Positions 11,653 through 27,991 of a DNA stretch of 32,000 nucleotides are shown here, one piece after another. The stretch's first letter is position 1, and each line of letters opens with the position of its first letter. The notes under the pieces are model-generated. The model had not been told where the DNA came from. It worked only from the letters and a program-made list of their open reading frames with translations, and did not search any database. The translations under genes were made by a program, and so were the position numbers. Origin of the DNA: Betaproteobacteria bacterium LSUCC0117 (GTDB lineage: Bacteria; Pseudomonadota; Gammaproteobacteria; Burkholderiales; Burkholderiaceae_C); the NCBI GenBank assembly GCA_030441535.1, contig JAUJFZ010000006.1, positions 6,456-38,455 on the forward strand, in the 5' to 3' direction.

Positions 11653-13293
11653 TTAGATTGACTGTTTAGCGCGTTCGCGCAACTGAAATTTTTGAATCTT
11701 GCCCGTTGATGTTTTAGGAATGGCCTCAAATCGAATGCCCCTCGGCACCTTATAGCTCGCCAATTTAGTGCGGCAGTGCGCAATTAAATCAGCGACGGTA
11801 ACGTTGCTATCGGCTTTTAATTCCACAAAAGCGAGCGGTGTCTCACCCCACTTGGTATCCGGCTTTGCAACCACGGCACAGGCCATAACGTCCGGATGGC
11901 TGTAGAGCGCGTCTTCGACCTCGATTGAGCTGATGTTTTCACCGCCGGAGATGATGATATCTTTGCTCCGATCTTTGATCTTCACGTACCGGTCTTGATC
12001 CATCACAGCCAGGTCGCCCGTATGGAACCAACCGCCCGCGAAAGCCGCTTCCGTGGCGTTCGGGTTCTTGAGGTAGCCCTTCATCACGATATTGCCTTTG
12101 AACATGATTTCGCCCATGGTCTCGCCATCTGCCGGGCAGACCGCCATGGTCTCTGGGTCCATCACGGCCATGCCCTCTTGCAACACATAGCGCACCCCTT
12201 GGCGACCATTCAGGCGGAACTGCTCGGCCAATGGTTCAGACGCCCAGGAGGGCCGCTTCACCGCGACACAGGCAGGCCCATACACTTCTGTCAGTCCATA
12301 CACGTGCGTGATGTCAAAACCAATCTTGGCCATGCCTTCGATCATTGCCGCCGGTGGCGCGGCGCCAGCGACCATGCCGCGCACAGACCAATCGATGCCA
12401 TCGCGCCACGCATCGGGGGCGTTATAAATTTGGCTTTGTACGATCGGCGCAGCGCAATAGTGGTCGGCGCGGTGGGCGCGAATATTCGCCAAAATGTGCT
12501 CACCATCCACGCGACGAAGGCAGATATGCGTACCGGCTTGCATCGCAACTGTCCACGGAAAACACCACCCGTTGCAGTGGAACATGGGCAAGGTCCACAG
12601 GTAGCGGGGAAAGTGGGGCATTTGCCACGTGGTGACATTACTCACGGCGTTCAAGTACGCGCCTCGGTGGTGGGTGACAACCCCCTTCGGGTCGCCGGTG
12701 GTGCCGCTGGTGTAGCTGACAGCGATCGCATCCCACTCATTAGCGGGCCCCTTCAATTCGCCCACGGGGTCGTGCGCAGCCAACCAAGACTCGTACGTGT
12801 CGGTGCCAATCAGCTCGCTGGGGCCCGTGTACTCAGCGTCCGCCACATCGATGACCAATGGGTGGCGGCCATGCGTCTCCGCCAAGATGTTCAAAGCGGC
12901 TCGCATCGTGCTCGAAAACTCGGTGTCGGTGATCACGACTTTGGCTTCGCAATGATTCATCTGCCAAGCTAACAATGACGAGTCCAGGCGTGTGTTTAGC
13001 GTGTTGAGAACTGCATTGATAGCCGGGACCGCGTAATGCACCTCGACCATCTCAGGGGTGTTGGGCAGCATGACGCTGACGGTATCACCCCGTTGAACAC
13101 CAGCGCTTTGTAACGCGGCTGCAAGGCGTGCGGAGCGGTTGCGGGTTTCAAGCCAGGTGTAGCGACGCTGTCCATGAATGACTGCGGGGAGATCGCCAAA
13201 AATTTCTGCGGTCCGTTCCACAAAGCTAACGGGCGACAGGGCTACAAAGTTGGCAACGTTGGTGTCTAGATTTTGGTCGTAAATAGAGGTCAT
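11653..13293 (-). CDS. AMP-forming acyl-CoA synthetase (medium-chain/DmdB-like subfamily)
   Basis: AMP-binding motif YTSGTTGDPKGV, plus GWFHTGDLAV and KDRSKDIIISGGENIS. Start placed at ATG 13293 (MTSIYDQNL...), 4 nt past the metY stop. The track's 35-codon 5' extension overlaps metY. Confidence 0.85.
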   Translation of the reverse strand: MTSIYDQNLDTNVANFVALSPVSFVERTAEIFGDLPAVIHGQRRYTWLETRNRSARLAAALQSAGVQRGDTVSVMLPNTPEMVEVHYAVPAINAVLNTLNTRLDSSLLAWQMNHCEAKVVITDTEFSSTMRAALNILAETHGRHPLVIDVADAEYTGPSELIGTDTYESWLAAHDPVGELKGPANEWDAIAVSYTSGTTGDPKGVVTHHRGAYLNAVSNVTTWQMPHFPRYLWTLPMFHCNGWCFPWTVAMQAGTHICLRRVDGEHILANIRAHRADHYCAAPIVQSQIYNAPDAWRDGIDWSVRGMVAGAAPPAAMIEGMAKIGFDITHVYGLTEVYGPACVAVKRPSWASEPLAEQFRLNGRQGVRYVLQEGMAVMDPETMAVCPADGETMGEIMFKGNIVMKGYLKNPNATEAAFAGGWFHTGDLAVMDQDRYVKIKDRSKDIIISGGENISSIEVEDALYSHPDVMACAVVAKPDTKWGETPLAFVELKADSNVTVADLIAHCRTKLASYKVPRGIRFEAIPKTSTGKIQKFQLRERAKQSI

Positions 13294-15072: not shown

Positions 15073-15201
15073 GGATCGGACGCCTTCTACGTGGTTTCTG
15101 GTTGGCAGATGAACAACCGTGCGGGTCCATTCTAAGTGCAGCTAAGGCCTTAAAATAGCAGATTGCCGGCCTGTTGAGGCGCGGTGCAACCCCCTATGTC
15201 T

Positions 15202-16821
15202 ATGTCTCACCAAAAGATCCTCATCCTCGACTTCGGTTCTCAAGTTACCCAGCTGATTGCACGCCGCGTGCGCGAGGCCCACGTCTATTGCGAGGTTCAC
15301 CCTTGCGATGTATCGAGCGATTGGGTCAAAGCATTCGCTGCAGATGGGATGTTGAAGGGGGTGATTCTGTCTGGCAGTCACGCGAGCGTCTACGAGGAAT
15401 CGACGGACCGTGCGCCTGACGCCGTATTCGAGTTGGGTACCCCTGTCTTGGGCATCTGTTACGGCATGCAAACCATGGCCCAACAACTGGGCGGGAAAGT
15501 CGCGAGTGGTCAGACACGCGAGTTTGGCTACGCCGAAGTGCGCGCCCACGGGCACACGCGGTTGCTGAACGACCTTGCGGATTTCACCACCCCCGAAGGA
15601 CATGGCATGTTGAAGGTTTGGATGAGTCATGGCGACAGGGTAGTCGACATGCCGCCGGGCTTTAGTGTGATGGCATCGACCCCCAGCTGTCCGATCGCTG
15701 GCATGGCCGACGAAACCCGCGGTTACTACGCATTGCAATTTCACCCGGAAGTGACCCACACCGTGCAGGGCGCTGCCATGTTGCGTCGCTTCGTGCTGGA
15801 TATCTGTGGCACTTCACCCGACTGGATCATGGGTGACTATGTGAGTGAAGCCGTCGCACGCATCCGCGAGCAGGTGGGCGACCAAGAGGTTATTTTGGGT
15901 TTGTCTGGCGGTGTCGATTCTTCGGTCGCGGCAGCCCTGATTCACCGTGCAATTGGCGACCAACTGACCTGCGTCTTCGTTGACCACGGTCTGCTGCGTC
16001 TCAATGAGGGCGACATGGTGATGGAAATGTTTGCCGGTAAATTGCACGCCCGCGTGATCCGTGTTGATGCCTCCGAGCTATTCCTAGGGCAGTTGGCGGG
16101 CGTCGATGACCCCGAGAAAAAGCGCAAGATCATTGGCGGTCTTTTTGTCGATGTTTTCAAGTCCGAGGCGGCGAAATTAAAGGCGGGTGACGGTGGCCAC
16201 AAAGGCGCGACCTTCCTCGCCCAAGGCACGATATATCCGGACGTTATCGAAAGCGGTGGGGCAAAGAGCAAAAAAGCCGTCACCATCAAGAGCCACCACA
16301 ACGTGGGCGGCCTACCTGAACAACTGGGGTTGCAGTTGCTTGAGCCGCTACGGGACCTGTTCAAGGACGAAGTCCGAGAGCTAGGTGTGGCGCTGGGCTT
16401 ACCGCACGACATGGTGTACCGCCACCCATTCCCAGGCCCCGGACTGGGCGTACGCATCTTGGGTGAAGTCAAAAAGGAATATGCAGACTTGCTGCGTCAA
16501 GCCGATGCCATCTTCATTGAGGAATTACGCAATTTCCGAGATGAAGCAACGGGTAAAACTTGGTACGAGCTGACCAGTCAAGCCTTCACCGTCTTCTTAC
16601 CCGTCAAAAGCGTTGGCGTTATGGGGGATGGTCGTACCTATGAGTACGTCGTTGCCTTGCGCGCGGTGCAAACCAACGATTTCATGACCGCCGATTGGGC
16701 CGAGTTGCCCTACGCGCTACTCAAGAAGACTTCGGGCCGCATCATCAACGAAGTGCGCGGTATCAACCGCGTGACGTACGACGTGTCGAGTAAACCGCCA
16801 GCGACGATTGAGTGGGAGTAG
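15202..16821 (+). CDS. guaA: GMP synthase (glutamine-hydrolysing)
   Basis: GATase domain ([27 protein letters not shown]), ATP-PPase P-loop LSGGVDSS, and dimerisation-domain end ...[13 protein letters not shown] 15202 gives 539 aa; ATG 15196 and GTG 15184 are alternatives. Its last 15 nt form the left island repeat. Confidence 0.97.
16807..16821 (+). repeat. attL core (left copy of the direct repeat; functional end of guaA)
   Basis: ATTGAGTGGGAGTAG encodes IEWE-stop. It matches 27977..27991 at 14 of 15 positions. Confidence 0.85.
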
Positions 16822-16833
16822 TTTTTATAATCT

Positions 16834-16951
16834 AAGTTGTTGATTTATAAGGGTTTTGTAGTTACACAAAACTTTCACAAATCAAATAAGTTGTTGATTT
16901 TATTAGGCGTTGAAATTACAGTTACACGTAAAGCTACACAAAACTGTAGCT
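16834..16951 (+). repeat. Left-arm repeat cluster (candidate integrase/RDF arm sites)
   Basis: Perfect 13-bp direct repeat AAGTTGTTGATTT at 16834-16846 and 16888-16900. AGTTACACAAAAC at 16860-16872, GTTACACG at 16921-16928, AGCTACACAAAAC at 16932-16944. Inverted repeats GTTTTGT-N6-ACAAAAC (16853-16872) and AGCTACA-N6-TGTAGCT (16932-16951). The same motif classes recur at the right end. Confidence 0.7.
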
Positions 16952-16981
16952 ATTCAAAATCGTAAGTAACTTCAACGCCAT

Positions 16982-18283
16982 ATGCCTCTCAAAAAACAGC
17001 CACACGAATCCAATGAGATAGCCATATACGACGAAGCCTTAATTTACCAAAGAGGTGAATATTGGCAGATGCGTATGTGGTTGGCTAAGGAAAAGAAGTA
17101 CGCACGTTTTAGTCTGCGTACGAGAAATAGAGACACAGCAGAGGCTAAAGCTAAGAAGCATTACCACGAGCTAATGGCACAGCAATTAGCGGGTAAAACC
17201 TACTTCTCTATGACAGCCAAGCAAGCTGTTGAAGAATTCATTAAGCAACGCACTAAAGATATGGAAGCGGGCTTAATCGTTAAGGGTAGGCTTGGCACAA
17301 TCAAAACACACTTAGAGCATTGGCTTAAGTTCATAGGCAAAGACACTAAAGTTAAGGAAATGGAACGCACAGACTGCGAAAACTATTTCCACAACCGCAC
17401 AAAGAACAAGAAGAAGTTGCCCGTTAGTAGAACCACTGTGCTTAATGAGCAGAGTAGCATCAACGCAATGATGAGTTGGCTACACAAACGTGGCGAAAGT
17501 TATATCGAGGCTTTTGAGTTTAAGAAGTTAGGAAAGATTGACACTGGCGACGAACGCACAAGGCGTAATACCTTTACGGACGAGGAAATCGTTGCCATAA
17601 AGTCCGAGCTTGAGAAATACATAAAGGAAGCCAAAGAAGATTTAAGCTTGTACGGCAACCTAAACAAAGTCGTCACAAGCTATTACTTGCTGATATCAAT
17701 CATAACTGGACTGCGTAGGGGAGAACAGTTACAGCTAACTTGGAGTGACATTAGTTGGATTGAGAAGCAAGTAAAGAGCGAAAGCAATGAGGACGAAGAA
17801 GGCGAGACATACAGCTTAGTTAAGATAACTGTTAGGGGTAAAACATCCAAAGTAGGTAAGACAAGAAACTTTGTAGTTAAGGATTGGGAGTACTTTGACG
17901 AACTGTTTAAATTCCTACATCCACGCTACATAAAGGCACACAAAGGTGAAAAGAACGCAACACCATTCGGTAAGACGTTAATCTTTAGTGTAGATGGTAA
18001 GACACCTCTAACGCCTCGTGTAATCCTTTACCACTTTGATGAAATACTCACACGCTGTGAAATTGATGGTGGTGATGAGCGAGATTTAGTGCCATACAGC
18101 TTTCGTCACTACTTCATCACAGATATGATTAACAAGGGTGCTTCTCCAACGCAAGTGGCTGAGACTTGTGGAACAAGTACGGCACAGATTGAGAAAACCT
18201 ACTACCACACTACAGAGCGTAAGATGATTGAAAACGCTCTGCCACAGTTCTACTACAAAGACGGATTGCTAATTCCTAAGTAA
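16982..18283 (+). CDS. int: Tyrosine-type site-specific integrase
   Basis: 433 aa. Catalytic signatures TGLRRGEQLQLTW (Arg I), VRGKTSK (beta-hairpin Lys), YSFRHYFITDM (Arg II-His), GTSTAQIEKTYYH (Tyr nucleophile). There is a long N-terminal arm/core-binding region. The gene lies next to attL. Confidence 0.9.
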   Translation: MPLKKQPHESNEIAIYDEALIYQRGEYWQMRMWLAKEKKYARFSLRTRNRDTAEAKAKKHYHELMAQQLAGKTYFSMTAKQAVEEFIKQRTKDMEAGLIVKGRLGTIKTHLEHWLKFIGKDTKVKEMERTDCENYFHNRTKNKKKLPVSRTTVLNEQSSINAMMSWLHKRGESYIEAFEFKKLGKIDTGDERTRRNTFTDEEIVAIKSELEKYIKEAKEDLSLYGNLNKVVTSYYLLISIITGLRRGEQLQLTWSDISWIEKQVKSESNEDEEGETYSLVKITVRGKTSKVGKTRNFVVKDWEYFDELFKFLHPRYIKAHKGEKNATPFGKTLIFSVDGKTPLTPRVILYHFDEILTRCEIDGGDERDLVPYSFRHYFITDMINKGASPTQVAETCGTSTAQIEKTYYHTTERKMIENALPQFYYKDGLLIPK

Positions 18284-18296
18284 TGGAGAAATGACT

Positions 18297-18599
18297 ATGA
18301 AATATAAACAGCCTACAGTTGGTGATAACAAAGTTGTTTATAAAGGAAAGCGATACTGGATTATTGAGTTAAGTGGCAAAGACAAAATCGAAGGCTTTGG
18401 TTCTGATTTCTGCCAGTACATAATGTACGACAAGCTCTACGAAGGAATACTTGCGACAATCGTAAGAGATGATAAGGGAACACTGACAGCTTCTTTAATG
18501 TCACATGTCGAGCTAAGTTATGACTTTCAAGATATGAAAGAGCTTATACGGTCAGTTCCTCTACATGCTGATGCTTACTACAAAGCTTGTGGAGGGTAG
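18297..18599 (+). CDS. Hypothetical protein (about 100 aa)
   Basis: ORF directly after int with island-type codon usage. GGAG at 18285-18288 is better spaced for ATG 18297 than for ATG 18291. No motif recognised. Confidence 0.55.
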   Translation: MKYKQPTVGDNKVVYKGKRYWIIELSGKDKIEGFGSDFCQYIMYDKLYEGILATIVRDDKGTLTASLMSHVELSYDFQDMKELIRSVPLHADAYYKACGG

Positions 18600-18727
18600 G
18601 CAGAGGGTATAGGTAAAAAATCACCAACCCAAAAGCGTAAGTACTCCACCTAAAAAAACTGCGTAGCAATTTTTAAGGGTAGTAAAACCATTTTTGCTAT
18701 GCCTGTCGTCACCACGAACCAGATTTT

Positions 18728-19138
18728 TTATACGCCATTATCACCGCCAAAAGTGTGCGATTTAACGCCGGAAGACGCATTATTGAGGCGAGACACGGCT
18801 CCATTGTAGGGCTGAGATAGGTTCTGCTGACTTGTGGGTAATGCTGAATTAGGCTGTGACGTAGGTTGGGGGTTGGTGGCTTTCGGCTTGGGCTTAAGTG
18901 GGGGTTGGGGTGAGGGTTGCTTGGGCTTAGGTGGGGGTGGTGGAGTGGGTGGCTTTTTTATAGCCTTACCCATATCAGCCTTACGCTTACGTGGCTTGAG
19001 TTTGGCGTTAGCCTTACGCTGTGCTTCGGATCGCTTCTGTTCTTCCGCTTGCTTTGCGATAGCCGCCCAAGTGTTGTCAATAATCGTACGCAATAAGCCA
19101 AGCTGTGCTTCCGCATCCGCAAACTCAAAGAACCTCAT
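18728..19138 (-). CDS. Hypothetical protein with a basic, extremely proline-rich centre
   Basis: 136 aa. Strong SD AAGGAG 6 nt before the ATG. A plausibly folded N-terminus (MRFFEFADAEAQLGLLRTIIDNTWAAIAKQAEEQ) is followed by KKPPTPPPPPKPKQPSPQPPLKPKPK. The antisense Gly-rich ORF 18834..19235 was rejected. Confidence 0.6.
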   Translation of the reverse strand: MRFFEFADAEAQLGLLRTIIDNTWAAIAKQAEEQKRSEAQRKANAKLKPRKRKADMGKAIKKPPTPPPPPKPKQPSPQPPLKPKPKATNPQPTSQPNSALPTSQQNLSQPYNGAVSRLNNASSGVKSHTFGGDNGV

Positions 19139-19178
19139 AGTGTCTCCTTTTCTTTTATTTAGTGAGAAAAGGAAGAAT

Positions 19179-19203
19179 GGGCTGACTTACAATAAGCCAG
19201 CCC
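19179..19203 (-). terminator. Intercistronic hairpin (weak terminator/attenuator candidate)
   Basis: GGGCTG (19179-19184) / CAGCCC (19198-19203) with a 13-nt loop. On the minus strand it is followed by ATTCTTCCTTTTCT. It sits between the 145-aa and Pro-rich genes. Confidence 0.3.
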
Positions 19204-19211
19204 TTGCTCTG

Positions 19212-19649
19212 TCATTTGCTAAAGCCAGCACGTAGGTTGTCACTGGCATTGGTAATCGCATCGTCAAGTTCGCCAGCAATTACCGCTTCCTTAAGCATTG
19301 ACAAAGTAGTCAGCAATTCATCACCAGAGCTAAGTTCAATGGCATTCTTCCCCTTAGCAAGCTCCAATGTCTTGCTTCCGTAGCGGACGCTTAGGTTAAT
19401 CTTGTTCGCTGGCGTTGTCCAAAACCATTCCTTAACACGCTTGGTAGTCTCTACAGCTACACGTTCACCTTCGGCATTAGTCACATTCTTAATACGCTTT
19501 GGAGCGTAAAAACGTCCTTCCTTTTGTGCTGTAGCAAGCTGTAGTTGTTCTTCAATCTTAGCCGCAAGCTTGTTTCTGCGAACGAGGATAGGGCTAAGGT
19601 TACGTTCACGCTTGCTTGCTACAAGTTTCAATTTGGCGATAAAAGTCAT
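19212..19649 (-). CDS. Hypothetical protein (145 aa), first gene of the leftward island operon
   Basis: ORF with SD AAGGAA. Basic N-terminal half, then KRVKEWFWTTPANKINLSVRYGSKTLELAKGKNAIEL and an acidic tail. No catalytic or HTH motif recognised. Confidence 0.6.
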   Translation of the reverse strand: MTFIAKLKLVASKRERNLSPILVRRNKLAAKIEEQLQLATAQKEGRFYAPKRIKNVTNAEGERVAVETTKRVKEWFWTTPANKINLSVRYGSKTLELAKGKNAIELSSGDELLTTLSMLKEAVIAGELDDAITNASDNLRAGFSK

Positions 19650-19679
19650 ACAAATTCCTTTTCGTAAAGTGGAATTTGT
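19650..19679. promoter_or_regulatory. Perfect 9-bp inverted repeat abutting the start codon of the 145-aa gene (operator or SD-sequestering hairpin)
   Basis: ACAAATTCC (19650-19658) - N12 - GGAATTTGT (19671-19679). On the minus-strand mRNA the 3' arm contains the SD (AAGGAA) and ends at the AUG. Confidence 0.45.
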
Positions 19680-19755
19680 ACTGTAGCTTCAGAACTTATT
19701 AAGGACAACCGAAAGGAAAATTTCTCCAATCCTTTGGTTTCGTATAAATAATAGT

Positions 19756-20280
19756 ATGAAACTACAAGAAATCCGCTCTCGTACAGCTTATGACCCTAAC
19801 GCTCTGCCTACACAGAAGGCAGCGGTACGTGCTTGGTTAGGTGGAATGAGTAAGGAATTTCCGCTGTCTTTGACGTTGACGCTTAAGCAAACCATTGTTG
19901 AGAAAAACGACAGAGGCGTGTACAGAAGAACTGTGAAGCGTGATGATTGCGAACGCATAGCCAAACGCTTCATACAAAAACTGAACAGACAAGTGTTCGG
20001 AAAGTATGCGGCAGACAAGTGCGGTAAGTCACTAAAGTATTTGCCAATCGTTGAAGGTGAGAGAAGCAATAAGCATCTTCATCTTCACTTTGCCATTGGT
20101 GGATTGCCAAGTCACGTTAAGTTTAATCAGTTTGACACGCTGGTTACCAATGCCAAGTTACAAGTTGAGAACATAGACAGCGAACACAAGGTGGACGTTA
20201 CCGACAGCGGTTGGATTTCGTACATCACTAAAGAGGTTGGCACAAAGGACACTGACAATGTCCTTTGGACTCTTTTCTAA
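19756..20280 (+). CDS. HUH-superfamily rolling-circle Rep-like protein (small; inovirus gpII/YagK-YfjJ-like layout)
   Basis: 174 aa with three motifs in canonical order. Motif I is FPLSLTLTL (aa 35-43), motif II is HLHLHFAI (aa 107-114, HUH), motif III is WISYITKE (aa 153-160, YxxK). No SD is present; TATAAA sits at 19743-19748, just upstream of the ATG, so the transcript may be leaderless. Confidence 0.6.
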   Translation: MKLQEIRSRTAYDPNALPTQKAAVRAWLGGMSKEFPLSLTLTLKQTIVEKNDRGVYRRTVKRDDCERIAKRFIQKLNRQVFGKYAADKCGKSLKYLPIVEGERSNKHLHLHFAIGGLPSHVKFNQFDTLVTNAKLQVENIDSEHKVDVTDSGWISYITKEVGTKDTDNVLWTLF

Positions 20281-20316
20281 AAGCATTACTGCCCTCGTTT
20301 GGCTCTTGCTTCGTCC

Positions 20317-20630
20317 TTAAAGCTGTAATAGCTTTAATTGGCGAAGCTATGTCTAAACACAATTAAACAGCTAAAGCTAACACTCAAACAGTCAAACACT
20401 GAAAGCAAAACAATAAAACTGAGTAGTACAGAGGTAAAGAATAAACAGCAGAAGCAAAGCTGACGCACTAAAACAAGCTACAAACGCTTCAAACAAGCTG
20501 AGCTAAGCTTGGGTAGCTGAGTAAGCTTAAAACAGCGTATAGGGCTTGTACGCAAGTCTGTTCGTATGTGGCTAAGCTGCCACAGCTTAAGAACAGCTAC
20601 AAAACCAAAGAGAATTACTAAAAGCTTTGT
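20317..20630 (+). repeat. AGCT-rich, A-skewed non-coding repeat region (candidate origin, recombination site or ncRNA)
   Basis: No ORF of 60 aa or more on either strand between 20281 and 20680. I count 16 AGCT tetramers between 20321 and 20626. Palindromes: TTAAAGCT-gtaat-AGCTTTAA (20317-20337) and TAAGCTG-cca-CAGCTTA (20573-20589). Direct repeats: AAACAAGCT at 20471 and 20491; AGCTGAGCTAAGCTT (20496-20510) versus AGCTGAG-TAAGCTT (20515-20528). Confidence 0.7.
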
Positions 20631-20768
20631 TTTTTAGGTTAAATATACATAACCTGTTGAAAACATTGAGGAAATTACTTTGGAACAAACAACGTCAAAA
20701 TCGGTAGGAATTAAGAAACAAAGAAAATACACTTTAGACATTGGAAAGCTTACATTAAGGAGAGCACT

Positions 20769-21345
20769 AATGTCCAAGCAAGCAAAAGTACTGACAGCAC
20801 AAGAAATCCGTAGGGTACTTGATTACGTGGCTACACGTCCACATTCAGTGCGTAATAGGGCGATGTTTTTGACGATGCTTTACGCAATGCTACGTGTCAA
20901 AGAGTGTGCCGCACTACGCTACGAAGATGTATTAGACGCAGAAGGCAAGATTAAAGCGGAGTTCTATCTGTCAGCTGAGCAAACCAAAGGGCGTAAGGGC
21001 GGGACTGTATTCGTCAGCGAAAAGCTTCGCAAAGAGCTACAAACCTACGTACGTGCGTTTCCGCCTAAGGCACTCAGTGACAAGCTTTTCTATTCACAGA
21101 AGCGTCCAAGTGAGGGTTGGAACAGCAACACGCTTTGCCAATTCTTCCATCACTTGTTCCGCAACTGTGACATTTCGGGTGGCACAAGTCATAGCCCAAG
21201 ACGCACTGGAATTACCAATTTGGCAGACAAAGGTGTCAGCGTTCGGGTTTTACAAAGCATTGCCCGTCACGCAAATATCTCAACCACTCAGTGCTACATA
21301 GACGTCAATGACGCTATGAAGCGGAAGGCTATTGAGTTAGTTTAA
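20769..21345 (+). CDS. Small tyrosine recombinase, essentially the catalytic domain only (FimB/FimE-sized)
   Basis: RHRY-type signatures: AMLRVKECAALRYEDV (Arg I), HSPRRTGITNL (HxxR), IARHANISTTQCYIDV (His and the Tyr nucleophile). Start set at ATG 20769, 8 nt after AAGGAG (192 aa). The track's TTG 20680 start has no SD. Confidence 0.85.
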
Positions 21346-21579
21346 GGCTTCGTCTAACTCGTCATCATCCATACCCCAAATTGCTTGGGCTATGACGTAC
21401 TTGTCAATCTCGATTTTGGCAGTATCAATCTCTGCCCACTTTAGATTGTCAAGAGCCTGAGCCGCTATTCCTTCCCAAGCTTCTTGTTCATCGACCTCCG
21501 ATGGAGATGTTTGATTATCAAAGTCAGCTCTGAGGAACGCAGTTGATATTGCTAGTCCAACGATAGCATCGATGTTCAT
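21337..21579 (-). CDS. Hyper-acidic small protein (80 aa; 19 Asp/Glu against 4 Lys/Arg)
   Basis: The ORF starts 10 nt downstream of the truncated H-NS-like gene on the same strand. The sequence ends ...WGMDDDELDEALN. Net charge is about -15 by my count. No family recognised. Confidence 0.6.
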   Translation of the reverse strand: MNIDAIVGLAISTAFLRADFDNQTSPSEVDEQEAWEGIAAQALDNLKWAEIDTAKIEIDKYVIAQAIWGMDDDELDEALN

Positions 21580-21588
21580 TTTCAGTCC

Positions 21589-21804
21589 TTACTTAGTTGT
21601 TTTCTTTGGTGCCGCTCTCTTAGCCGCTGTACCACGCTTCTTACGTGTAGCAAGTACGCCCTTAAAGTCTGACGTCTTGAAGCCGTAAAGCTTGATGTCA
21701 GCCTTCATCTTAGCCAATACGTTAGCTCGTTCCTTAAGCATTGCGTCTTCACGCTCAGCTTCAAGTTTGGCGATTTGGGCGTTGATTTCATCTACACGTG
21801 TCAT
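21589..21804 (-). CDS. Truncated H-NS-like protein (oligomerisation coiled-coil and basic linker only; no C-terminal DNA-binding domain)
   Basis: MTRVDEINAQIAKLEAEREDAMLKERANVLAKMKADIKLYGFKTSDFKG...RKKRGTAAKRAAPKKTTK* resembles the N-terminal two thirds of betaproteobacterial H-NS-like proteins (for example Bordetella BpH3, from memory). It stops just before where the (Y/F)R.P.TG.TW.GRG DNA-binding motif would begin. Start set at ATG 21804 (GGAG 8 nt upstream). The track's ATG 21855 lies inside the predicted promoters. Confidence 0.6.
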   Translation of the reverse strand: MTRVDEINAQIAKLEAEREDAMLKERANVLAKMKADIKLYGFKTSDFKGVLATRKKRGTAAKRAAPKKTTK

Positions 21805-21829
21805 TTGAGTGGCTCCATAAGTTATGACA

Positions 21830-21868
21830 TTGACAAGGTACTCTACAGTGGGCATAGTTGTGTGTCAA
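21830..21868. promoter_or_regulatory. Two fully overlapping divergent sigma70-like promoters (rightward to hsdM, leftward to the truncated H-NS operon)
   Basis: Plus strand: TTGACA (21830-21835) - 17 nt - CATAGT (21853-21858). Minus strand: TTGACA (complement of 21863-21868) - 17 nt - TAGAGT (complement of 21840-21845). Each -10 element lies in the other promoter's spacer. Confidence 0.45.
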
Positions 21869-21947
21869 CATTCCTTAGAATGACATCATCTATGCCGTAA
21901 GGATAAACCCTTACGAAACGCCATCCCAAAACTGAGAACCTGCCGCA

Positions 21948-23402
21948 ATGTTTGAGACTACTTTTCGCAATTTGGACGACACGCTACGCAAGGACGCAGG
22001 CTGTAGCAGTGAACTTGACTACATTGAACAGACAAGCTGGGTTCTGTTTCTCAAATATTTGGACGACTTTGAGGCAGACAGGGAAGCCGCCGCCAAGCTC
22101 AACGGCGAACGCTATCAACGCATCCTAAGCGATGAGTACGCTTGGACTACGTGGGCAATGCCTAAAACGGCAGATGGGAAGTTGGACTACAACAAGGCTC
22201 TGACTGGGGATGACTTAAAGGAGTTCGTAGACAACAAGTTGTTCCCATACCTCAAAAGCTTCCGTGTTACCGCAGAACGGGCAGATACGATTGAGTACAA
22301 GATTGGAGAGATATTCCACGAGCTTAAGAACAAGCTACAAAGTGGCTACAGCTTGCGTGAAGTCATCACAAAGGTGGATGAACTTCGATTTCGTAGCAAT
22401 GAAGAAAAGCACGAAATGTCCAGCTTATACGAGGACAAGATTAAGAATATGGGTAATGCGGGACGCAATGGTGGCGAATACTACACGCCACGCCCGCTAA
22501 TTAGGACAATCGTTAAGGTTGTTAACCCAAAGTTGGGCAACAAAGTCTATGACGGTGCTGTTGGTAGTGCGGGCTTCTTGTGTGAAGCCTATGAGTTTAT
22601 GCGTACCAGCAAACAGCTAACCGCTAAAGAATTTGAACAGCTACAGCGTAAGACGTTTTACGGCAAAGAGAAGAAGTCACTTGCCTACATCATTGGCGTA
22701 ATGAATATGATATTACACGGGATTGAAGCTCCTAATATCATTCACACCAATACCTTAGGAGAGAACATTGCTGACATACAGGAAAAAGATAGGGTAGATA
22801 TTGTGCTGGCTAATCCGCCATTTGGTGGTAGCGAGCGTGTGGAAGTACAAGAGAACTTTCCAATCCGAACAAGTGAAACAGCCTATCTTTTCCTACAGCA
22901 CTTCATTAAGATTTTGCGAGTTGGAGGACGCTGTGGCATTGTCATTAAGAACACGTTTCTCAGCAACACAGACAACGCAAGCGTGGCACTGAGAAAGCAA
23001 CTGCTGGAAGAGTGTGACTTACAGGCTGTGCTTGAGTTGCCAGGTGGTGCGTTTACAGGCACTGGTGTTAAGACTGTGGTTCTGTTCTTTGAGAAGGGTA
23101 GGGCTACCGAGAAGGTCTGGTACTACCAACTCAATTTGTCACGCAACTTGGGCAAGACCAATAGTCTTAATGAGCGTGACTTAGAGGAATTCATCACGTT
23201 ATCAGCCTCACAAGCTGACAGCGAAAATTCGTGGTCTGTGAACGTTAAGGACATTGACAAGTCAACTTGGGACTTAACGGCTAACAATCCTAACCGCAAG
23301 GACACAACAGACAAGCGTACGCCAGAAGAAATCTTGGCTGAGATAGAAGAACTGGATTTAGAAGCGGCGACGGCAATTGCGGCAATTAAGGAGTTGCTGT
23401 GA
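21948..23402 (+). CDS. hsdM: Type I restriction-modification system, DNA methyltransferase subunit M
   Basis: 484 aa. HsdM_N-type N-terminus (LRKDAGCSSELDYIEQTSWVLFLKYLDD), AdoMet motif VYDGAVGSAGFL, catalytic LANPPFGG. Confidence 0.95.
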   Translation: MFETTFRNLDDTLRKDAGCSSELDYIEQTSWVLFLKYLDDFEADREAAAKLNGERYQRILSDEYAWTTWAMPKTADGKLDYNKALTGDDLKEFVDNKLFPYLKSFRVTAERADTIEYKIGEIFHELKNKLQSGYSLREVITKVDELRFRSNEEKHEMSSLYEDKIKNMGNAGRNGGEYYTPRPLIRTIVKVVNPKLGNKVYDGAVGSAGFLCEAYEFMRTSKQLTAKEFEQLQRKTFYGKEKKSLAYIIGVMNMILHGIEAPNIIHTNTLGENIADIQEKDRVDIVLANPPFGGSERVEVQENFPIRTSETAYLFLQHFIKILRVGGRCGIVIKNTFLSNTDNASVALRKQLLEECDLQAVLELPGGAFTGTGVKTVVLFFEKGRATEKVWYYQLNLSRNLGKTNSLNERDLEEFITLSASQADSENSWSVNVKDIDKSTWDLTANNPNRKDTTDKRTPEEILAEIEELDLEAATAIAAIKELL

Positions 23403-24526
23403 GTAGTTTTACAGCTAAGCTTGGTGACATTTGCGAGATCAAGCGTGGAACAACTATTACCCAAAAAAACGCCATTGAAGGCGAGATACCAGTTGTTGCG
23501 GGTGGTATCAAGCCAACATATTTTCACAATACCGCTAACCGTACTGGTAAAACAATAACGATTAGTGGTTCTGGTGCTAATGCTGGGTATGTGAATTTTT
23601 GGAGCGTACCAATATTCGCCTCTGATTGTTCAACAGTTCAAGTTTTTAGAGACGACGTATGTGTGGAGTACATACACTATTTTTTATTAAGCAAGCAGGA
23701 ATTCATCTATAAAGAACTAAGAAGCGGTGCGGCTCAACCTCACGTTTATGGAAAAGACATTGCTCACATTGAAGTGAGTGTTCCTGAAATCCTTATTCAG
23801 AAAAAGATAGTCGCAAAACTTGACTCAATATTTGCTGAAATAGAGAAGGCTACGGCGGCGGCTGAGGCTAACGCTAAGAACGCTGAGGCACTTTTTCAGA
23901 GTTATTTGACGCAGATTTTTAATCGTAATAGTGATGATACCTTGTCGACTTTAGGGGAATATTACGATGTAAGAGATGGGACTCACGATTCGCCAAAGTT
24001 TTTTGATGAAGGATATCCCTTAATTACTTCGAAAAATCTGAGAAGTGGAGTAATTGACTTTTCTAATGTTCAGAACATCAGCAAAGAAGACTATAAGAGC
24101 ATTTCGCAAAGAAGTGATGTTAAAAAAGGTGATGTACTTATGGCTATGATTGGAACAATTGGAAATCCCGTCATTGTCGATACTGATATGGAGTTTGCCA
24201 TTAAGAATGTTGCGTTGTTCAAAACCAGCCAAAGTCAATCGCCAGAATTTTTACGTTATTACCTTAGTTCAGACTTTGTTGTAAAGAAAATGGAAAAAGA
24301 CGCAAAGGGTGCTACTCAAAAGTTTGTGGGGCTTGGATATTTGCGTTCATTTCCCATAAAGATACCTAAGTATGAGCAACAACTAAATGTTGTCAAAGAT
24401 TTAGAGAGGTATGAACGGCATACCAAAAAACTTCTAAATGCGTACAGAAATAAAGTCTCTGAATGTGTTTCACTCAAGAATTCAATCCTAAAGCAAGCCT
24501 TCGCTGGTGAGTTAGTTAAGGAGTAA
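23399..24526 (+). CDS. hsdS: Type I restriction-modification system, specificity subunit S
   Basis: 375 aa. The GTG start overlaps the hsdM stop (GTGA). Two target-recognition halves are separated by a central helical conserved region (KIVAKLDSIFAEIEKATAAAEANAKNAEALFQSYLTQIF). A matching C-terminal helix ends ...LKNSILKQAFAGELV. Confidence 0.9.
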   Translation: MSSFTAKLGDICEIKRGTTITQKNAIEGEIPVVAGGIKPTYFHNTANRTGKTITISGSGANAGYVNFWSVPIFASDCSTVQVFRDDVCVEYIHYFLLSKQEFIYKELRSGAAQPHVYGKDIAHIEVSVPEILIQKKIVAKLDSIFAEIEKATAAAEANAKNAEALFQSYLTQIFNRNSDDTLSTLGEYYDVRDGTHDSPKFFDEGYPLITSKNLRSGVIDFSNVQNISKEDYKSISQRSDVKKGDVLMAMIGTIGNPVIVDTDMEFAIKNVALFKTSQSQSPEFLRYYLSSDFVVKKMEKDAKGATQKFVGLGYLRSFPIKIPKYEQQLNVVKDLERYERHTKKLLNAYRNKVSECVSLKNSILKQAFAGELVKE

Positions 24527-24528
24527 AT

Positions 24529-26847
24529 GTGAACGAAGCTGATACACGGGCAGAACTCATTGACCCCAAACTTAAGCAAGCTGGTTGGGGGGATGTGGCA
24601 GAGTCACGTGTTCAGCGTGAGTACAACATCAATGCGGGCGAGATTCGCTCTGGTGGTATTCGTACTGGACAGATGAAGGCTGACTATGTGTTGGCATATA
24701 AGAACCGCAAGCTGGCTGTCGTTGAAGCAAAGAGTATAGAAGTTGAAGTGGGTGAGGGTGTGGCACAAGCCAAGCTCTACGCTACCAAGCTTGAACTCGC
24801 CTATACCTATTCCACCAATGGCAAGGAAATCTATGAGATATGCCTATCCACTGGTGAGGAAAAGCTAATAGACAGCTTCCCTACACCTGATGAACTCTGG
24901 CAAAGAACATTTGGTGATGCTAATGAGTGGCAAGCTAAGTTCAACGCTGTACCATTTGAAGATGTTAACGGGACAAAGCAGGCTCGCTACTACCAAGAAA
25001 TCGCTGTCAATAAGGTAATGGAATCCGTTGCCACTAATAAGCAACGCATTCTTCTGACACTGGCAACGGGTACAGGCAAGACCTTTGTTGCGTTTCAAAT
25101 CGCTTGGAAGTTGTTTCAGGCACGTTGGAACTTGAGCAAAGACGGAAAGCGTACACCTCGCATCTTGTTCTTAGCTGATAGAAATATTCTTGCGAATCAA
25201 GCTTACTTAGACTTTGGTGCGTTCAAAGAAGACGCACTTGTACGCATCAGTCCAAGCCAAATAGCCAAGCGTGGTGAAGTACCTAAGAACGGGAGTGTGT
25301 TCTTTACTATCTTCCAAACCTTTATGAGTGGGGCAGATGGTAAGCCCTATTTTGGTGACTATGAACCCGACTTTTTTGATTTAGTAATCATTGACGAGTG
25401 CCACAGAGGAGGAGCCAATGACGAAAGTAACTGGAGAGATATTCTCAATTACTTCAGTCCAGCGGTTCACTTGGGGCTGACAGCAACCCCTAAGCGAGCG
25501 GACAACGCTGACACATACAAATACTTTGGTGAGCCAGTCTACAAGTACAGCTTAAAAGAAGGCATACAAGATGGCTTCCTAACACCGTTCAAAGTTAAGC
25601 GTATTCAGACAACAATGGATGAATACGTCTATACGCCAGATGATCAAGTGTTAGAAGGTGAGGTTGAGGAAGGCTACGTCTACACAGAAAAAGACTTTAA
25701 TAAGAAGATTGTCATACATGAGCGTGAACGTAAGCGAGTACAAGAGATGCTTGCTAACATCAATCCAATGGAAAAGACGTTGGTGTTCTGTGCTAATCAA
25801 GCACACGCCGCAATGGTTAGAGATATCATTAACCAAGAATCCAGTATTAAAAAAGCTGACTACTGTGTGCGTGTCACAGCTAATGACGGGGCGATTGGTG
25901 ACACATACCTTAAGCAATTCCAAGACAACGATAAGCAAATTCCTACCATCATAACTACAAGTCAAAAGCTTACGACTGGTGTAGACGCACGTAATGTTAG
26001 GAACGTGGTTCTTATGCGTCCAGTTAACTCAATGATTGAGTTCAAGCAGATTATTGGACGTGGTACACGATTGTTTGAGGGTAAGCATTACTTCACCATC
26101 ATTGACTTCGTCAACGCTTATCACTTATTCAGCGATTCTGAATGGGATGGCGAGCCAATTGAGCCAGAACCAAAAACCCCTAAGCCTCCTAAGGAACCAC
26201 CAGAGGGTGGCGGAGAAGGAAGCGACGGTGGCGATGAGGGTGGTGACACTAAAGAGAAAAAGGTAAAGATTAGGCTCAGTGATGGCAAAGTACGTGAGAT
26301 ACAGAGTATGCGTAGTACTCTGTTCTATGTGGATGGAAAGCCAATCAGTGTTGAGGAGTTCTTACAAAAGTTGTTCAACACACTACAGCTGCCTGAGTTC
26401 TTTGGTTCGGAAGAGGTTTTACGTAAGCTATGGGCTAATCCCATCACACGTAAAGAGCTCCTTGTCAAACTTGAACATCACGGTTGTGCCAAAGAGGACT
26501 TAGTCAAACTACAAGAGATGATTGACGCACAGAACTGCGACTTGTTTGACGTAATTGAGTACATCAGTTACGCCAAAAAGCCAATCACTCGTGCCGAACG
26601 TGCCTCCAACGCACAAGGAAACATCTATACGTTTCTGAATGAGCGGCAGAGAGACTTCATTGCCTTCATTCTAAGAAACTATGTACAAGATGGAGTAGAC
26701 GAGTTGGATATTTCCAAGTTGAGTTCGTCACTGACTTCTAAGTACGGTAGTGTCTACGAGGGACAAAAACAGCTTGGTGACGTGGATGAGATTAAGCGTG
26801 TATTTGTCGAATTTCAACAACACTTGTACAACGTAAAGATTGCCTGA
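24529..26847 (+). CDS. hsdR: Type I restriction enzyme, endonuclease/translocase subunit R (short, EcoAI/EcoEI-like architecture)
   Basis: 772 aa. N-terminal NEADTRAELIDPKLKQAGW and a PD-(D/E)XK element (KADYVL...VVEAKS). Helicase motifs LATGTGKT, IIDECHRG, LGLTATP, QIIGRGTR. A low-complexity linker (EPEPKTPKPPKEPPEGGGEGSDGGDEGGD) precedes a C-terminal helical domain. AAGGAG lies 5 nt upstream of the GTG start. Confidence 0.93.
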   Translation: MNEADTRAELIDPKLKQAGWGDVAESRVQREYNINAGEIRSGGIRTGQMKADYVLAYKNRKLAVVEAKSIEVEVGEGVAQAKLYATKLELAYTYSTNGKEIYEICLSTGEEKLIDSFPTPDELWQRTFGDANEWQAKFNAVPFEDVNGTKQARYYQEIAVNKVMESVATNKQRILLTLATGTGKTFVAFQIAWKLFQARWNLSKDGKRTPRILFLADRNILANQAYLDFGAFKEDALVRISPSQIAKRGEVPKNGSVFFTIFQTFMSGADGKPYFGDYEPDFFDLVIIDECHRGGANDESNWRDILNYFSPAVHLGLTATPKRADNADTYKYFGEPVYKYSLKEGIQDGFLTPFKVKRIQTTMDEYVYTPDDQVLEGEVEEGYVYTEKDFNKKIVIHERERKRVQEMLANINPMEKTLVFCANQAHAAMVRDIINQESSIKKADYCVRVTANDGAIGDTYLKQFQDNDKQIPTIITTSQKLTTGVDARNVRNVVLMRPVNSMIEFKQIIGRGTRLFEGKHYFTIIDFVNAYHLFSDSEWDGEPIEPEPKTPKPPKEPPEGGGEGSDGGDEGGDTKEKKVKIRLSDGKVREIQSMRSTLFYVDGKPISVEEFLQKLFNTLQLPEFFGSEEVLRKLWANPITRKELLVKLEHHGCAKEDLVKLQEMIDAQNCDLFDVIEYISYAKKPITRAERASNAQGNIYTFLNERQRDFIAFILRNYVQDGVDELDISKLSSSLTSKYGSVYEGQKQLGDVDEIKRVFVEFQQHLYNVKIA

Positions 26848-26856
26848 GGTAACGAT

Positions 26857-27804
26857 ATGTTAGGTGAATTTGAACCAGTAGACTTGCGAACTATTTGGAA
26901 TAATGAGGCAACGGACTTCACACCGTGGCTTGCTAAAGCTGAGAATTTAGAGCGGCTTAGTAAAGCATTGGGTATGGATTTAGAGACGACTGGCACAGAG
27001 CAAAGTGTCGGCCCATATCGTGCGGATTTGCTTTGTAAGGACGCATTTAGTGGCAATGCGGTACTCATTGAGAACCAATTAGAGAAGACGAACCACAGTC
27101 ATTTAGGGCAGATTCTGACCTACTCTGCGGGACTGAATGTAAAGACTGTTGTGTGGATTGCGTCACGCTTCACTGACGAGCATAGAGCCGCACTTGACTA
27201 TCTAAACGAAATTACAGAAGAAGGTTACAGCTTCTTTGGACTTGAGATAGAGCTATGGAAGATAGGTAATAGTGTTCCAGCCCCCAAGTTCAACATAGTT
27301 TCACGTCCAAATACGTGGACAAAGAATGTTCGAGAAAGTAACCAACAACACGGTGAGTTGACTGAAATTAAGCGTCAACAGTTGGCTTACTGGAGTGCTT
27401 TCAAAGAATTTATGGACGCTCGTAAGAGCTCTGTACGTTGCCAAAACGGCTCGCCTCAGCATTGGGTGAATATGAGCATTGGCAAAAGTGGTTTCTGGTT
27501 AACGGCTCGTGTGAACAGCCTTAAGTCAATCATATCTGCCGACTTCCGATTTAAGACGCCTTCTTCTAAGGCGTTATACCATCAGTTTTATTCTGACAAA
27601 GAGGCGATTGAGAGAGAGTTTGGTGGCGAACTTGAGTGGTTTGAATTGCCCGAAGGTAAAGAATCTTATGTGACTGTCACGAAGTCTAAGTCTGACTTTA
27701 GGAACGAAAGTGATTGGGATAGTCAATTTACTTGGCTAGCTGAGCGACTTGAGAAGCTTGACAACGTGTTTAGAAAGCGAGTGAAGAAGGTGGATTTAGA
27801 ATAA
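26857..27804 (+). CDS. RM-operon accessory protein: PD-(D/E)XK-nuclease-like N-terminal domain plus a DUF4268-like C-terminal domain
   Basis: 315 aa, starting 9 nt after the hsdR stop with a GAGG SD. N-terminus: GPYRADLLCKD...AVLIENQLEKTNHSHLGQILTY (D...E.K-type core). C-terminus: YWSAFKEFM...HWVNMSIGKSGFWL...ELEWFELPEGKESYVTV...WLAERLEKLDNVFRKRV. This matches my recollection of DUF4268; not verified. Confidence 0.65.
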   Translation: MLGEFEPVDLRTIWNNEATDFTPWLAKAENLERLSKALGMDLETTGTEQSVGPYRADLLCKDAFSGNAVLIENQLEKTNHSHLGQILTYSAGLNVKTVVWIASRFTDEHRAALDYLNEITEEGYSFFGLEIELWKIGNSVPAPKFNIVSRPNTWTKNVRESNQQHGELTEIKRQQLAYWSAFKEFMDARKSSVRCQNGSPQHWVNMSIGKSGFWLTARVNSLKSIISADFRFKTPSSKALYHQFYSDKEAIEREFGGELEWFELPEGKESYVTVTKSKSDFRNESDWDSQFTWLAERLEKLDNVFRKRVKKVDLE

Positions 27805-27900
27805 TTTTTTCCATTCGCATTCTGTGTATCAAAACGAAAGTAAAATCAAAGCTTCACAGGCACTTAGTCCAACCATAAGGGAACTTATGTCCGTGCGCAA

Positions 27901-27970
27901 AGTTACACAAAAGTTACACATGAAAAATCACCGCTCACAAGTCGTTGATTATATTGACTATTTTAGTCAA
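27901..27970 (+). repeat. Right-arm repeat cluster (candidate integrase/RDF binding sites)
   Basis: Tandem AGTTACACAAA-AGTTACACA (27901-27920). AAGTCGTTGATT (27939-27950) is related to the left-arm AAGTTGTTGATT. Inverted repeat TTGACTA-ttt-TAGTCAA (27954-27970) lies 6 nt from the att core. Confidence 0.65.
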
Positions 27971-27976
27971 GTAACT

Positions 27977-27991
27977 ATTGAGTGGGAATAG
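27977..27991 (+). repeat. attR core (displaced copy of the guaA 3' end)
   Basis: ATTGAGTGGGAATAG is a 14/15 match to 16807..16821. GC-rich host sequence resumes immediately to its right. Confidence 0.85.

Follow-up and report, generated by a model that had tools for sequence, protein, structure and literature searches.

A stand-alone gpII-type HUH endonuclease and a candidate replication origin on integrase-bearing islands of freshwater Burkholderiales

The gpII protein of the filamentous Ff phages (f1, M13 and fd) is a nuclease of about 410 amino acids (aa) with extra domains and no helicase, in which the HUH motif precedes the catalytic tyrosine. Its (+) origin lies in non-coding DNA with hairpins and is nicked in CTTT/A.. 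between nt 5781 and 5782 (PMC11765958); a functional cleavage-site oligonucleotide reads GTTCTTTAATAGTGGACTC (bioRxiv 10.1101/2023.12.22.573028). The Pfam family of gpII, PF23343 (REP_ORF2-G2P), also covers plectrovirus ORF2, and microvirus initiators are similar by fold. Here we describe HUH174, a protein encoded in a 32,000-nt stretch of the genome of Betaproteobacteria bacterium LSUCC0117 (contig JAUJFZ010000006.1, positions 6,456 to 38,455 of the forward strand; ‘the window’ in what follows, whose coordinates we use). By profile and predicted fold it shares the gpII domain family, the placement of HUH before Tyr and the lack of a helicase, and beside its gene lies non-coding DNA with hairpins and an invariant core containing CTTT/AAT. 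In contrast to gpII, HUH174 consists of the domain and a ~35-aa N-terminal helix, 174 aa in all; it is found on a chromosomal island with an integrase, its motif is in a stem rather than a loop, and its partners are a DUF6641 protein and a truncated tyrosine recombinase. The reading we prefer, with a probability of about 0.55, is that HUH174 is an active single-tyrosine (Y1) HUH endonuclease of the gpII/gpA lineage, reduced to the nuclease domain alone, and serves as the replication initiator of integrative islands of about 8–11 kb.

Other integrated elements likewise have their own rolling-circle initiator, working after excision or from the integrated state, among them pSAM2 (RepSA) and the CTX and TLC phages (RstA, Cri); dependence on a host helicase would be a further likeness (PMC4439123). 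RepSA and RstA belong to other Rep families, and those elements carry transfer or virion genes. RepSA was weakly matched by only one of 87 divergent HUH174 relatives, and the CTX nick site was set aside as a comparison because RstA is a Rep_trans protein. The ‘Inovirus Gp2-like’ proteins (Escherichia coli YagK and YfjJ, and those of the Pseudomonas tmRNA islands I23, I44 and I55; bioRxiv 10.1101/2024.08.29.610337), which we compared by description, are products of gpII-related, uncharacterised core genes on tyrosine-integrase islands with defence cargo and without transfer genes. They differ in hosts, attachment site and partner genes, NCBIfam gives no match for HUH174, and the HUH174 islands have an identifiable candidate origin. 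SGI1 (MpsA, MpsB, oriT) also replicates after excision and has a second, atypical protein of the tyrosine recombinase family beside structured non-coding DNA; its replication initiator is of another kind, and the nicking enzyme of the HUH174 islands thus belongs to a different protein class.

Already known are the Pfam family, integrated elements with rolling-circle initiators (pSAM2 RepSA, CTX RstA, TLC Cri) and Gp2-like island genes. New here are the 174-aa stand-alone domain, its fixed module with DUF6641 and a truncated recombinase, a structured candidate origin supported by covariation and containing an Ff-type motif, and a circular form.

The HUH174 protein

19756–20280, plus strand: HUH174, predicted stand-alone HUH-Y1 endonuclease, 174 aa

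The open reading frame (ORF) runs from an ATG at 19756 to a TAA at 20278–20280 and contains three HUH motifs in order, exactly as a preliminary description of this DNA had stated: motif I, FPLSLTLTL, at aa 35–43; motif II, NKHLHLHFAIGG, at aa 105–116; and motif III, GWISYITKE, at aa 152–160. It is a real gene, far beyond chance. We found 362 homologues among 5.8 billion proteins, nearly all of exactly 174 aa and none of them named. A profile search of 1.84 billion cluster representatives yielded 495 clusters at E <= 1e-3, most of them made up of stand-alone proteins 160–200 aa long, and 268 metagenome loci were confirmed.

Conservation was assessed in a close alignment of 66 sequences and a divergent alignment of 87 sequences with 21–60% identity to the query. 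Residues T40, T42, E100, K106, H109, H111, Y156, K159 and E160 are invariant in the close alignment. In the divergent alignment the sole invariant residues, down to ~21% identity, are H109, H111 and Y156, which answers the earlier question of His and Tyr conservation in the affirmative for both sets; T40 (83/87), T42 (79/87), K159 (83/87) and E100 remain at least 90% conserved. That the three catalytic residues alone are invariant across such deep divergence argues for retained catalysis. E100 is a likely third metal ligand, since it is replaced by His or Gln only, as expected for such a ligand. The catalytic pair had been given as H107 and H109, which proved wrong: H107 is Asn in 35 of the 66 close homologues and Arg in 44 of the 87 distant ones, the HUH motif is therefore H109-L-H111, and the H107A mutant then proposed is off target. 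We also considered E160, one helical turn from Y156, as a termination nucleophile and dropped it because it is conserved in just 42/87.

A Pfam scan of HUH174 gave a single meaningful, if sub-threshold, match to PF23343 (E = 2.9e-5), spanning aa 39–159 against profile positions 4–93 of 99 (90 of 99 positions). The same family is matched by 63/87 divergent relatives, with a best E of 1e-9, and precomputed matches to it are present on many close homologues. An AlphaFold model built on the 66-sequence alignment has a predicted local distance difference test score (pLDDT) of 89.7 and a predicted template modelling score (pTM) of 0.82. In this model the LTLTL of motif I, with T40 and T42, lies on strand 37–43, the HUH motif on strand 109–115 and Y156 (within YxxK159) on helix 151–157; this is the expected order of strands and helix, HUH preceding the Tyr helix. 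Foldseek comparison with BFVD (predicted viral structures) gave 16 matches at E <= 1e-3, all at probability 1.0 and with E down to 2e-5, and those that are named are microvirus ‘replication initiator protein’ and ‘ORF2/G2P domain’ proteins. Against the PDB, the highest probability (0.82) went to the origin-binding domains of adeno-associated virus Rep, which are HUH nucleases, and the top fold matches included parvovirus NS1, a RAYT and ISDra2 TnpA, all HUH nucleases too. When the PDB was searched by sequence, both the protein and the family profile yielded spurious matches only, and NCBIfam, PHROGs and PADLOC had no match for HUH174. Pfam and fold agree in a HUH placement, and a non-HUH placement was not seen; by profile and modelled fold HUH174 belongs to the gpII/ORF2 nuclease family already defined in Pfam.

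Class tests point the same way. The order motif I, HUH, Tyr is the topology of Reps and transposases and the opposite of that in classical HUH relaxases (MOB F/P/Q/V), where Tyr is N-terminal to HUH, and the Pfam scan of HUH174 contained neither a relaxase family nor Y1_Tnp. Elements of the IS200/IS605 TnpA or RAYT kind have two hairpin ends, dispersed copies and Y1_Tnp; here a one-sided single element was found. Among the scanned island ORFs (those of about 80 aa or more) no match was found to an inovirus morphogenesis ATPase (pI/Zot type) or coat protein. We hold with high confidence that HUH174 is a single-tyrosine HUH nuclease of the Rep class whose catalytic residues are intact, from which we infer catalysis, and which lacks a helicase or primase domain. 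The proposal of a minimal nicking and joining enzyme related to filamentous-phage gpII is thus supported by Pfam, model and conservation alike.

An origin-like element after the stop codon

20278–20362, plus strand: whole origin-like element (H1, H2 and core), covariance model R1, 98 bits
20281–20311, plus strand: hairpin H1, from RNAalifold, with covariation
20317–20337, plus strand: hairpin H2, TTAAAGCT-loop-AGCTTTAA, from a register-free hairpin search
20331–20347, plus strand: invariant core GCTTTAATTGGCGAAGC, occurring once in the window

The region after the stop codon was aligned from 82 distinct loci. An element of ~70 nt starts at the HUH stop codon, which it abuts in 81/82 of these loci, and it is near-constant even where the proteins are 55–60% identical. 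H1 is a bulged hairpin with an outer stem N-AGCA/TGCT-N' (20281–85 with 20307–11), an internal loop TTACT/TCT, an inner stem GCC/GGC (20291–93 with 20301–03) and a 7-nt loop. RNAalifold predicts it independently, with a closing pair that is U:A in 33 sequences, A:U in 28 and C:G in 15; the middle pair of the inner stem is C:G in 70, G:C in 6 and A:U in 6. Paired cells make up 99.6–100% for H1 as delimited above and 94.8% for our named structure, five of whose pairs show double changes; 0/500 shuffles attain the observed covariation, and slid controls pair at 19–62%. H2 is found in nearly all distinct loci, with a loop that varies in sequence and length and with compensatory stem variants that include AAAGAT/ATCTTT, AAAGCA/TGCTTT, AAAGCCG/CGGCTTT and GAAG/CTTC. 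An alternative hairpin H3 (AGCTT/AAGCT), which would place the nick in a loop, was dropped because it is uncompensated when the H2 arm changes. Rfam contains no matching family for the element.

The preliminary description had sought the target of HUH174 in one of the hairpins of the adjacent non-coding DNA. The location stands; the single hairpin gives way to a composite of H1, H2 and a CTTTAAT core. Among the three hairpins it named, 20317–20337 (H2) is borne out by compensatory changes, 20543–20558 falls within a block that is conserved in sequence with no covariation, and 20573–20589 is not conserved. The best-supported hairpin, 20281–20311 (H1), had been overlooked, as had the three-gene module described below.

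The core GCTTTAATTGGCGAAGC contains CTTTAAT, as in the Ff gpII nick motif CTTT/AAT, partly within the 3' arm of H2. By analogy with Ff gpII, the predicted nick is on the plus strand between T20335 and A20336. GCTTTAA occurs 37–69 nt past the stop codon in four independent distant lineages, each occurrence having a chance of ~1% by shuffling, and loci L103 and L107 (locus handles are ours) share with the Ff nick site the longer stretch CTTTAATAG(T). In L033 (2430–2480) a 25-nt tandem duplication (AATTGGCGAAGCTTTATCTAAATTC x2) has its left edge 0–2 nt from the predicted nick, which is circumstantial support for that position. Resemblances to what we take to be the nick sites of pMV158 (TACTACG) and of pC194 and phiX174 (CTTG/ATA) fall at less conserved positions and were not used.

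With model R1, each island has exactly one strong copy, invariably on the plus strand and abutting the HUH stop codon. The model also detects the element at the distant loci L102 and L106, so that the element is recognisable beside HUH relatives at 28–36% identity. Rolling-circle replicons have a unique origin near the rep gene, and a structured element of that kind is what is found here, with a predicted nick position.

Two loci depart from this pattern. L016 has a decayed second copy (12131–12218) whose core reads CATTAAC in place of CTTTAAT; it lies 1.6 kb downstream of the copy that looks functional, in the same orientation. Three cargo ORFs lie between the two, which may reflect cargo gained by way of the origin or recombination between islands. 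In L060 (1836–2467) an IS3-family transposase gene (rve core motifs) has been inserted directly after H1, splitting H1 from H2 and the core, and has probably inactivated the origin. The break in similarity after H1 at this locus had been taken up as a possible nick or recombination junction; it was rejected as uninformative once it proved to be the IS3-family insertion.

A single one-sided copy also bears on the idea that HUH174 is a Y1 transposase-like enzyme (IS200/IS605 TnpA or RAYT type) moving a hairpin-bounded single-stranded segment. Size, the single Tyr and a hairpin-bearing target are similar, and a RAYT and ISDra2 TnpA are among the weak PDB fold matches. Each island, however, has one copy of the element and no second end, its site beside the gene is fixed, the islands are bounded by integrase attachment (att) sites, no Y1_Tnp match was found in Pfam, and the sole two-copy case, L016, has a decayed second copy. 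With one copy, on one side, and no transposase signature, we reject this role; it is highly improbable and largely refuted already.

Covariation is the same for RNA and for single-stranded DNA, and the element is co-oriented with the HUH gene and directly follows it. The hairpins could accordingly be RNA elements (a stabiliser in the 3' untranslated region, a terminator or a small RNA), the protein then being a DNA-binding regulator that does not cut; SGI1 offers a parallel in that its mobilisation requires a self-encoded small RNA. We find this very unlikely. The invariance of the three catalytic residues alone argues for retained catalysis, no U-run follows H2, Rfam has no match, and the most conserved part is the unpaired or stem-base CTTTAAT core, common to a DNA nick site.

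The island, its circular form and the conserved module

16807–16821, plus strand: attL core ATTGAGTGGGAGTAG, the last guaA codons; GTTACAC arm repeats at 16861 and 16921
16982–18283, plus strand: island integrase of the tyrosine family, 433 aa, adjoining guaA in 8 genome loci
19212–19649, minus strand: DUF6641, 145 aa, Pfam PF20346 (E = 1e-13), divergent obligate partner
20680–21345, plus strand: rec221 tyrosine recombinase, 221 aa, PF00589 (E = 3e-25, profile positions 1–170 of 172)
27977–27991, plus strand: attR core ATTGAGTGGGAATAG; GTTACAC arm repeats at 27902 and 27913

Host DNA in the window is about 58% GC and encodes rho, an AddAB-like nuclease/helicase pair, dsbA, metabolic genes and guaA (15184–16821). 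GC falls to 42–46% between ~17 and 28 kb. The island occupies 16807–27991 (11.2 kb) at the 3' end of guaA. A 15-nt direct repeat of that gene's 3' end marks its two limits and restores the guaA stop codon, and arm-type GTTACAC repeats lie inside both ends. The fall in GC and the guaA repeat together bear out the earlier claim of an integrated island.

The gene order is integrase, a 102-aa ORF, a 136-aa ORF (minus strand), DUF6641 (minus strand), HUH174, a 399-nt non-coding region and rec221; then come two small ORFs on the minus strand, hsdM, hsdS, hsdR and a gene for a 315-aa protein. Defence cargo spans 21948–27804 and consists of a type I restriction-modification system of the EcoAI family (NCBIfam 829 bits; hsdM 21948–23402, hsdS 23399–24526, hsdR 24529–26847) and the 315-aa protein, which matches the PADLOC defence candidate PDC-S11 (E = 3e-120). 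The cargo of related islands differs, with helix-turn-helix/Peptidase_M78, AAA_21/DUF4435 and Mrr_N proteins. In the ORF scans the island has an integrase and no transfer genes.

Two of the smaller ORFs deserve mention. The 136-aa ORF (18728–19138, minus strand) has no family match; it contains a long Pro/Lys/Gln-rich tract, and its N-terminal ~55 residues alone are conserved in related islands. The 88-aa protein at 21589–21855 (minus strand) is kept in most related islands and weakly matches MvaT/MvaU, an H-NS-like silencer (E = 0.004); it may be a xenogeneic-silencing or anti-silencing factor.

A free form was found in the metagenome contig JACCDO011665613.1 (L094), which is 8,602 nt long with a 127-nt terminal overlap and therefore assembles as a circle of 8,475 bp. 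It has no host DNA and a single att core, ATGGAGTGGGAGTAG, with attR-type arm repeats on one side and attL-type repeats on the other, the latter followed by integrase, DUF6641, HUH, origin element, rec221 and cargo. This is the attP junction of a related island: an excised circle (or else a tandem array) must have been plentiful enough for the contig to be assembled. Complete integrated islands, each about 7.8 kb long, are seen in L028 and L057.

Twenty loci came from named genomes of Limnohabitans, Polynucleobacter, Comamonadaceae and other Burkholderiales, and include metagenome-assembled genomes labelled Francisellaceae, Gammaproteobacteria, Bacteroidetes and Bifidobacterium. In 18 of the 19 loci with synteny matches, DUF6641 is divergent from the HUH gene and a small recombinase lies downstream; the exception, L014, is a short contig without the DUF6641 side. 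The module is present in several hundred freshwater Burkholderiales loci. The large integrase and its insertion site vary (guaA in eight loci; elsewhere the integrase is only 24% identical), as does the cargo. The arrangement extends to HUH relatives of 28–36% identity, which DUF6641 adjoins in L102, L106, L107 and L108; in L106 and L107 a Phage_integrase protein of 188–198 aa is encoded downstream. DUF6641 itself has more than 2,000 homologues, including proteins of cultured Burkholderia, Paraburkholderia and Cupriavidus, all uncharacterised, and its model (pLDDT 83) had no structural neighbour in a Foldseek search of the PDB (best E 0.85).

No HUH174 relative was found among PLSDB plasmids or INPHARED phages at tblastn sensitivity, and the family occurs in only one of 2.9 million IMG/VR contigs. 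The only plasmid match to DUF6641 is L110, an integrase–DUF6641–HUH-relative cluster on the 629-kb chromid pAB510d of Azospirillum sp. B510 (5140–7752). Its HUH relative has 153 aa (hhalign probability 94%). With a degenerate HUH motif and an adjacent insertion sequence, L110 probably represents a decayed version of the module, here in an alphaproteobacterium.

The rec221 protein is a catalytic domain only, aligning to XerD positions 101–277, with no core-binding domain. We place its start at TTG 20680 because L009 and L011 have an ATG in that column and because GAGGAAA precedes the TTG. It has a basic N-terminal tail of 30 aa, and across loci 0.3–3.6 kb of variable DNA separates the HUH gene from the recombinase. 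PF00589 is its sole Pfam match; PF12835, the signature of the MpsA-type (INT_DTR_like) class (PMC10484663), is not matched, which sets rec221 apart from MpsA of SGI1 and from that class (MOB_M).

A truncated recombinase, invariably linked to a gpII-type nuclease, raises another possibility: that HUH174 yields the island as circular single-stranded DNA whose folded hairpins are a substrate for rec221 or for packaging by a helper filamentous phage. Precedents are attC with IntI in integrons and the CTX phage attP with XerCD. The gpII-type initiator, the phage-type nick motif and strand-specific hairpins directly upstream of the nick mimic the Ff intergenic region, G-T wobbles fall on the plus strand, and the island size is within the inovirus range. 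We nevertheless think it quite unlikely: no morphogenesis ATPase or coat-like gene is present among the scanned island ORFs, the IMG/VR count is a single contig, conventional integrase, att repeats and arm sites already explain integration, and nothing shows rec221 acting on H1 or H2. If true, such a route would bring together a rolling-circle nickase and a tyrosine recombinase that works on folded single-stranded DNA, and would account for the spread of integrase-only defence islands.

An island with an integrase yet no transfer genes also invites the view that HUH174 is a mobilisation protein, nicking the element as an oriT and piloting the strand into a recipient by way of the mating apparatus that a conjugative element in the same cell provides, a role that Rep-type proteins play for certain mobilisable elements. 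Many islands are ‘hitchers’, Rep proteins of plasmids can also act as Mob proteins (PMC5714925), and a nick site just downstream of the gene would make the gene enter last, as is usual for relaxases. The evidence from the protein runs the other way: HUH precedes Tyr instead of following the permuted order of classical HUH relaxases, the Pfam scan has no relaxase family, and the nearest structural relatives are phage replication initiators; moreover, neither a coupling protein nor a helper element was identified. Among the three roles suggested in the preliminary description (island initiator, relaxase-like protein, gpII-type protein), the gpII relation holds and the relaxase-like role is the least supported. 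As an account in place of replication we regard mobilisation as unlikely; replication and transfer are not mutually exclusive, and computation does not separate them.

Two conserved regions flank the HUH gene and its element:

19710–19748, plus strand: HUH upstream control region, an inverted repeat and a -10-like TATAAA
20465–20560, no strand assigned: non-coding block 2, with AAGCT-rich repeats and a sequence strongly conserved in 36 loci

The upstream inverted repeat, CGAAAGGA-N12-TCCTTTGG at 19710–19737, lies between the divergent DUF6641 and HUH genes, is conserved in loci down to ~65% protein identity and looks like an operator. The -10-like TATAAA is at 19743–19748, and a conserved A/T-rich (T/C)ATAAAT box ends ~7 nt before the invariant ATG. 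The reported lack of a Shine-Dalgarno sequence is general, since 0/76 distinct upstream regions have one. A leaderless or near-leaderless HUH174 mRNA is plausible on these sequence grounds, and stays a hint because a strict sigma-70 scan upstream of the gene finds no full promoter.

Structural covariation was looked for in block 2 and none was found. The block contains inverted arms GCGTAT (20534–39) and GTACGC (20547–52) around a 7-bp spacer, AGGGCTT, and 20534–20552 is a candidate protein-binding or tyrosine-recombinase core site, possibly for rec221.

Proposed mechanism and significance

The analysis establishes the gene, its motifs and how they are conserved, the class of fold, the module, the structured element with its unique position, the limits of the island and a circular form that contains attP. 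With HUH174 as replication initiator, we envisage the following course, in which catalysis, nick position, helicase recruitment, the replicative purpose and what the hairpins, rec221 and DUF6641 do are all inferred. The large integrase would excise the island from guaA as a circle. HUH174 would bind the origin that starts at its own stop codon and nick the plus strand at or near CTTT/AATT (20335/20336), the metal being held by E100, H109 and H111, and Y156 would become covalently joined to the 5' phosphate. The free 3'-OH would prime leading-strand synthesis by the host polymerase and a borrowed host SF1 helicase (Rep or UvrD type), and a second subunit would cleave and rejoin after one round. 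We propose the Y156 linkage, extension by host enzymes and termination by a second subunit because they are established for single-tyrosine Reps without a helicase, which use host helicases and terminate as oligomers (PMC5714925; PMC4439123). H1 and H2 would fold on the displaced plus strand and serve in origin recognition, or as a single-strand origin for priming of the complementary strand, or both. rec221 would most likely resolve multimers or act on the conserved block upstream of its own gene, and DUF6641 may be an accessory or regulatory factor.

Several points weigh against this reading. HUH174 scores 24.7 bits for PF23343, under the gathering threshold of 27.8 bits, and its fold similarity to PDB entries is weak (E about 0.05, TM about 0.4). 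The predicted nick sits in the stem of H2 rather than in a loop and is based on a resemblance of 7–9 nt, and the hairpins could work at the RNA level, in the 3' untranslated region. The linkage to DUF6641 and a tyrosine recombinase is foreign to ordinary rolling-circle replicons and is unexplained by simple replication. The lone circular contig could be a tandem array or a non-replicating excision product, and with no relatives in PLSDB or INPHARED at tblastn sensitivity the family offers no example that sustains an autonomous replicon.

How integrase-only defence islands replicate and spread is an open problem, and the gpII-like core genes found on them lack an assigned function. The HUH174 islands provide a tractable case, with a 174-aa enzyme, a candidate origin of ~85 nt, a predicted nick and two obligate partner genes; several hundred natural variants supply compensatory-mutation data, and the evidence for a free circle adds to this tractability. 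A minimal sequence-specific HUH nickase with a short target could also serve as a tool for covalent DNA tagging. The hosts Limnohabitans and Polynucleobacter are dominant freshwater bacterioplankton, so the element is likely to matter ecologically as a carrier of defence genes, restriction-modification genes among them.

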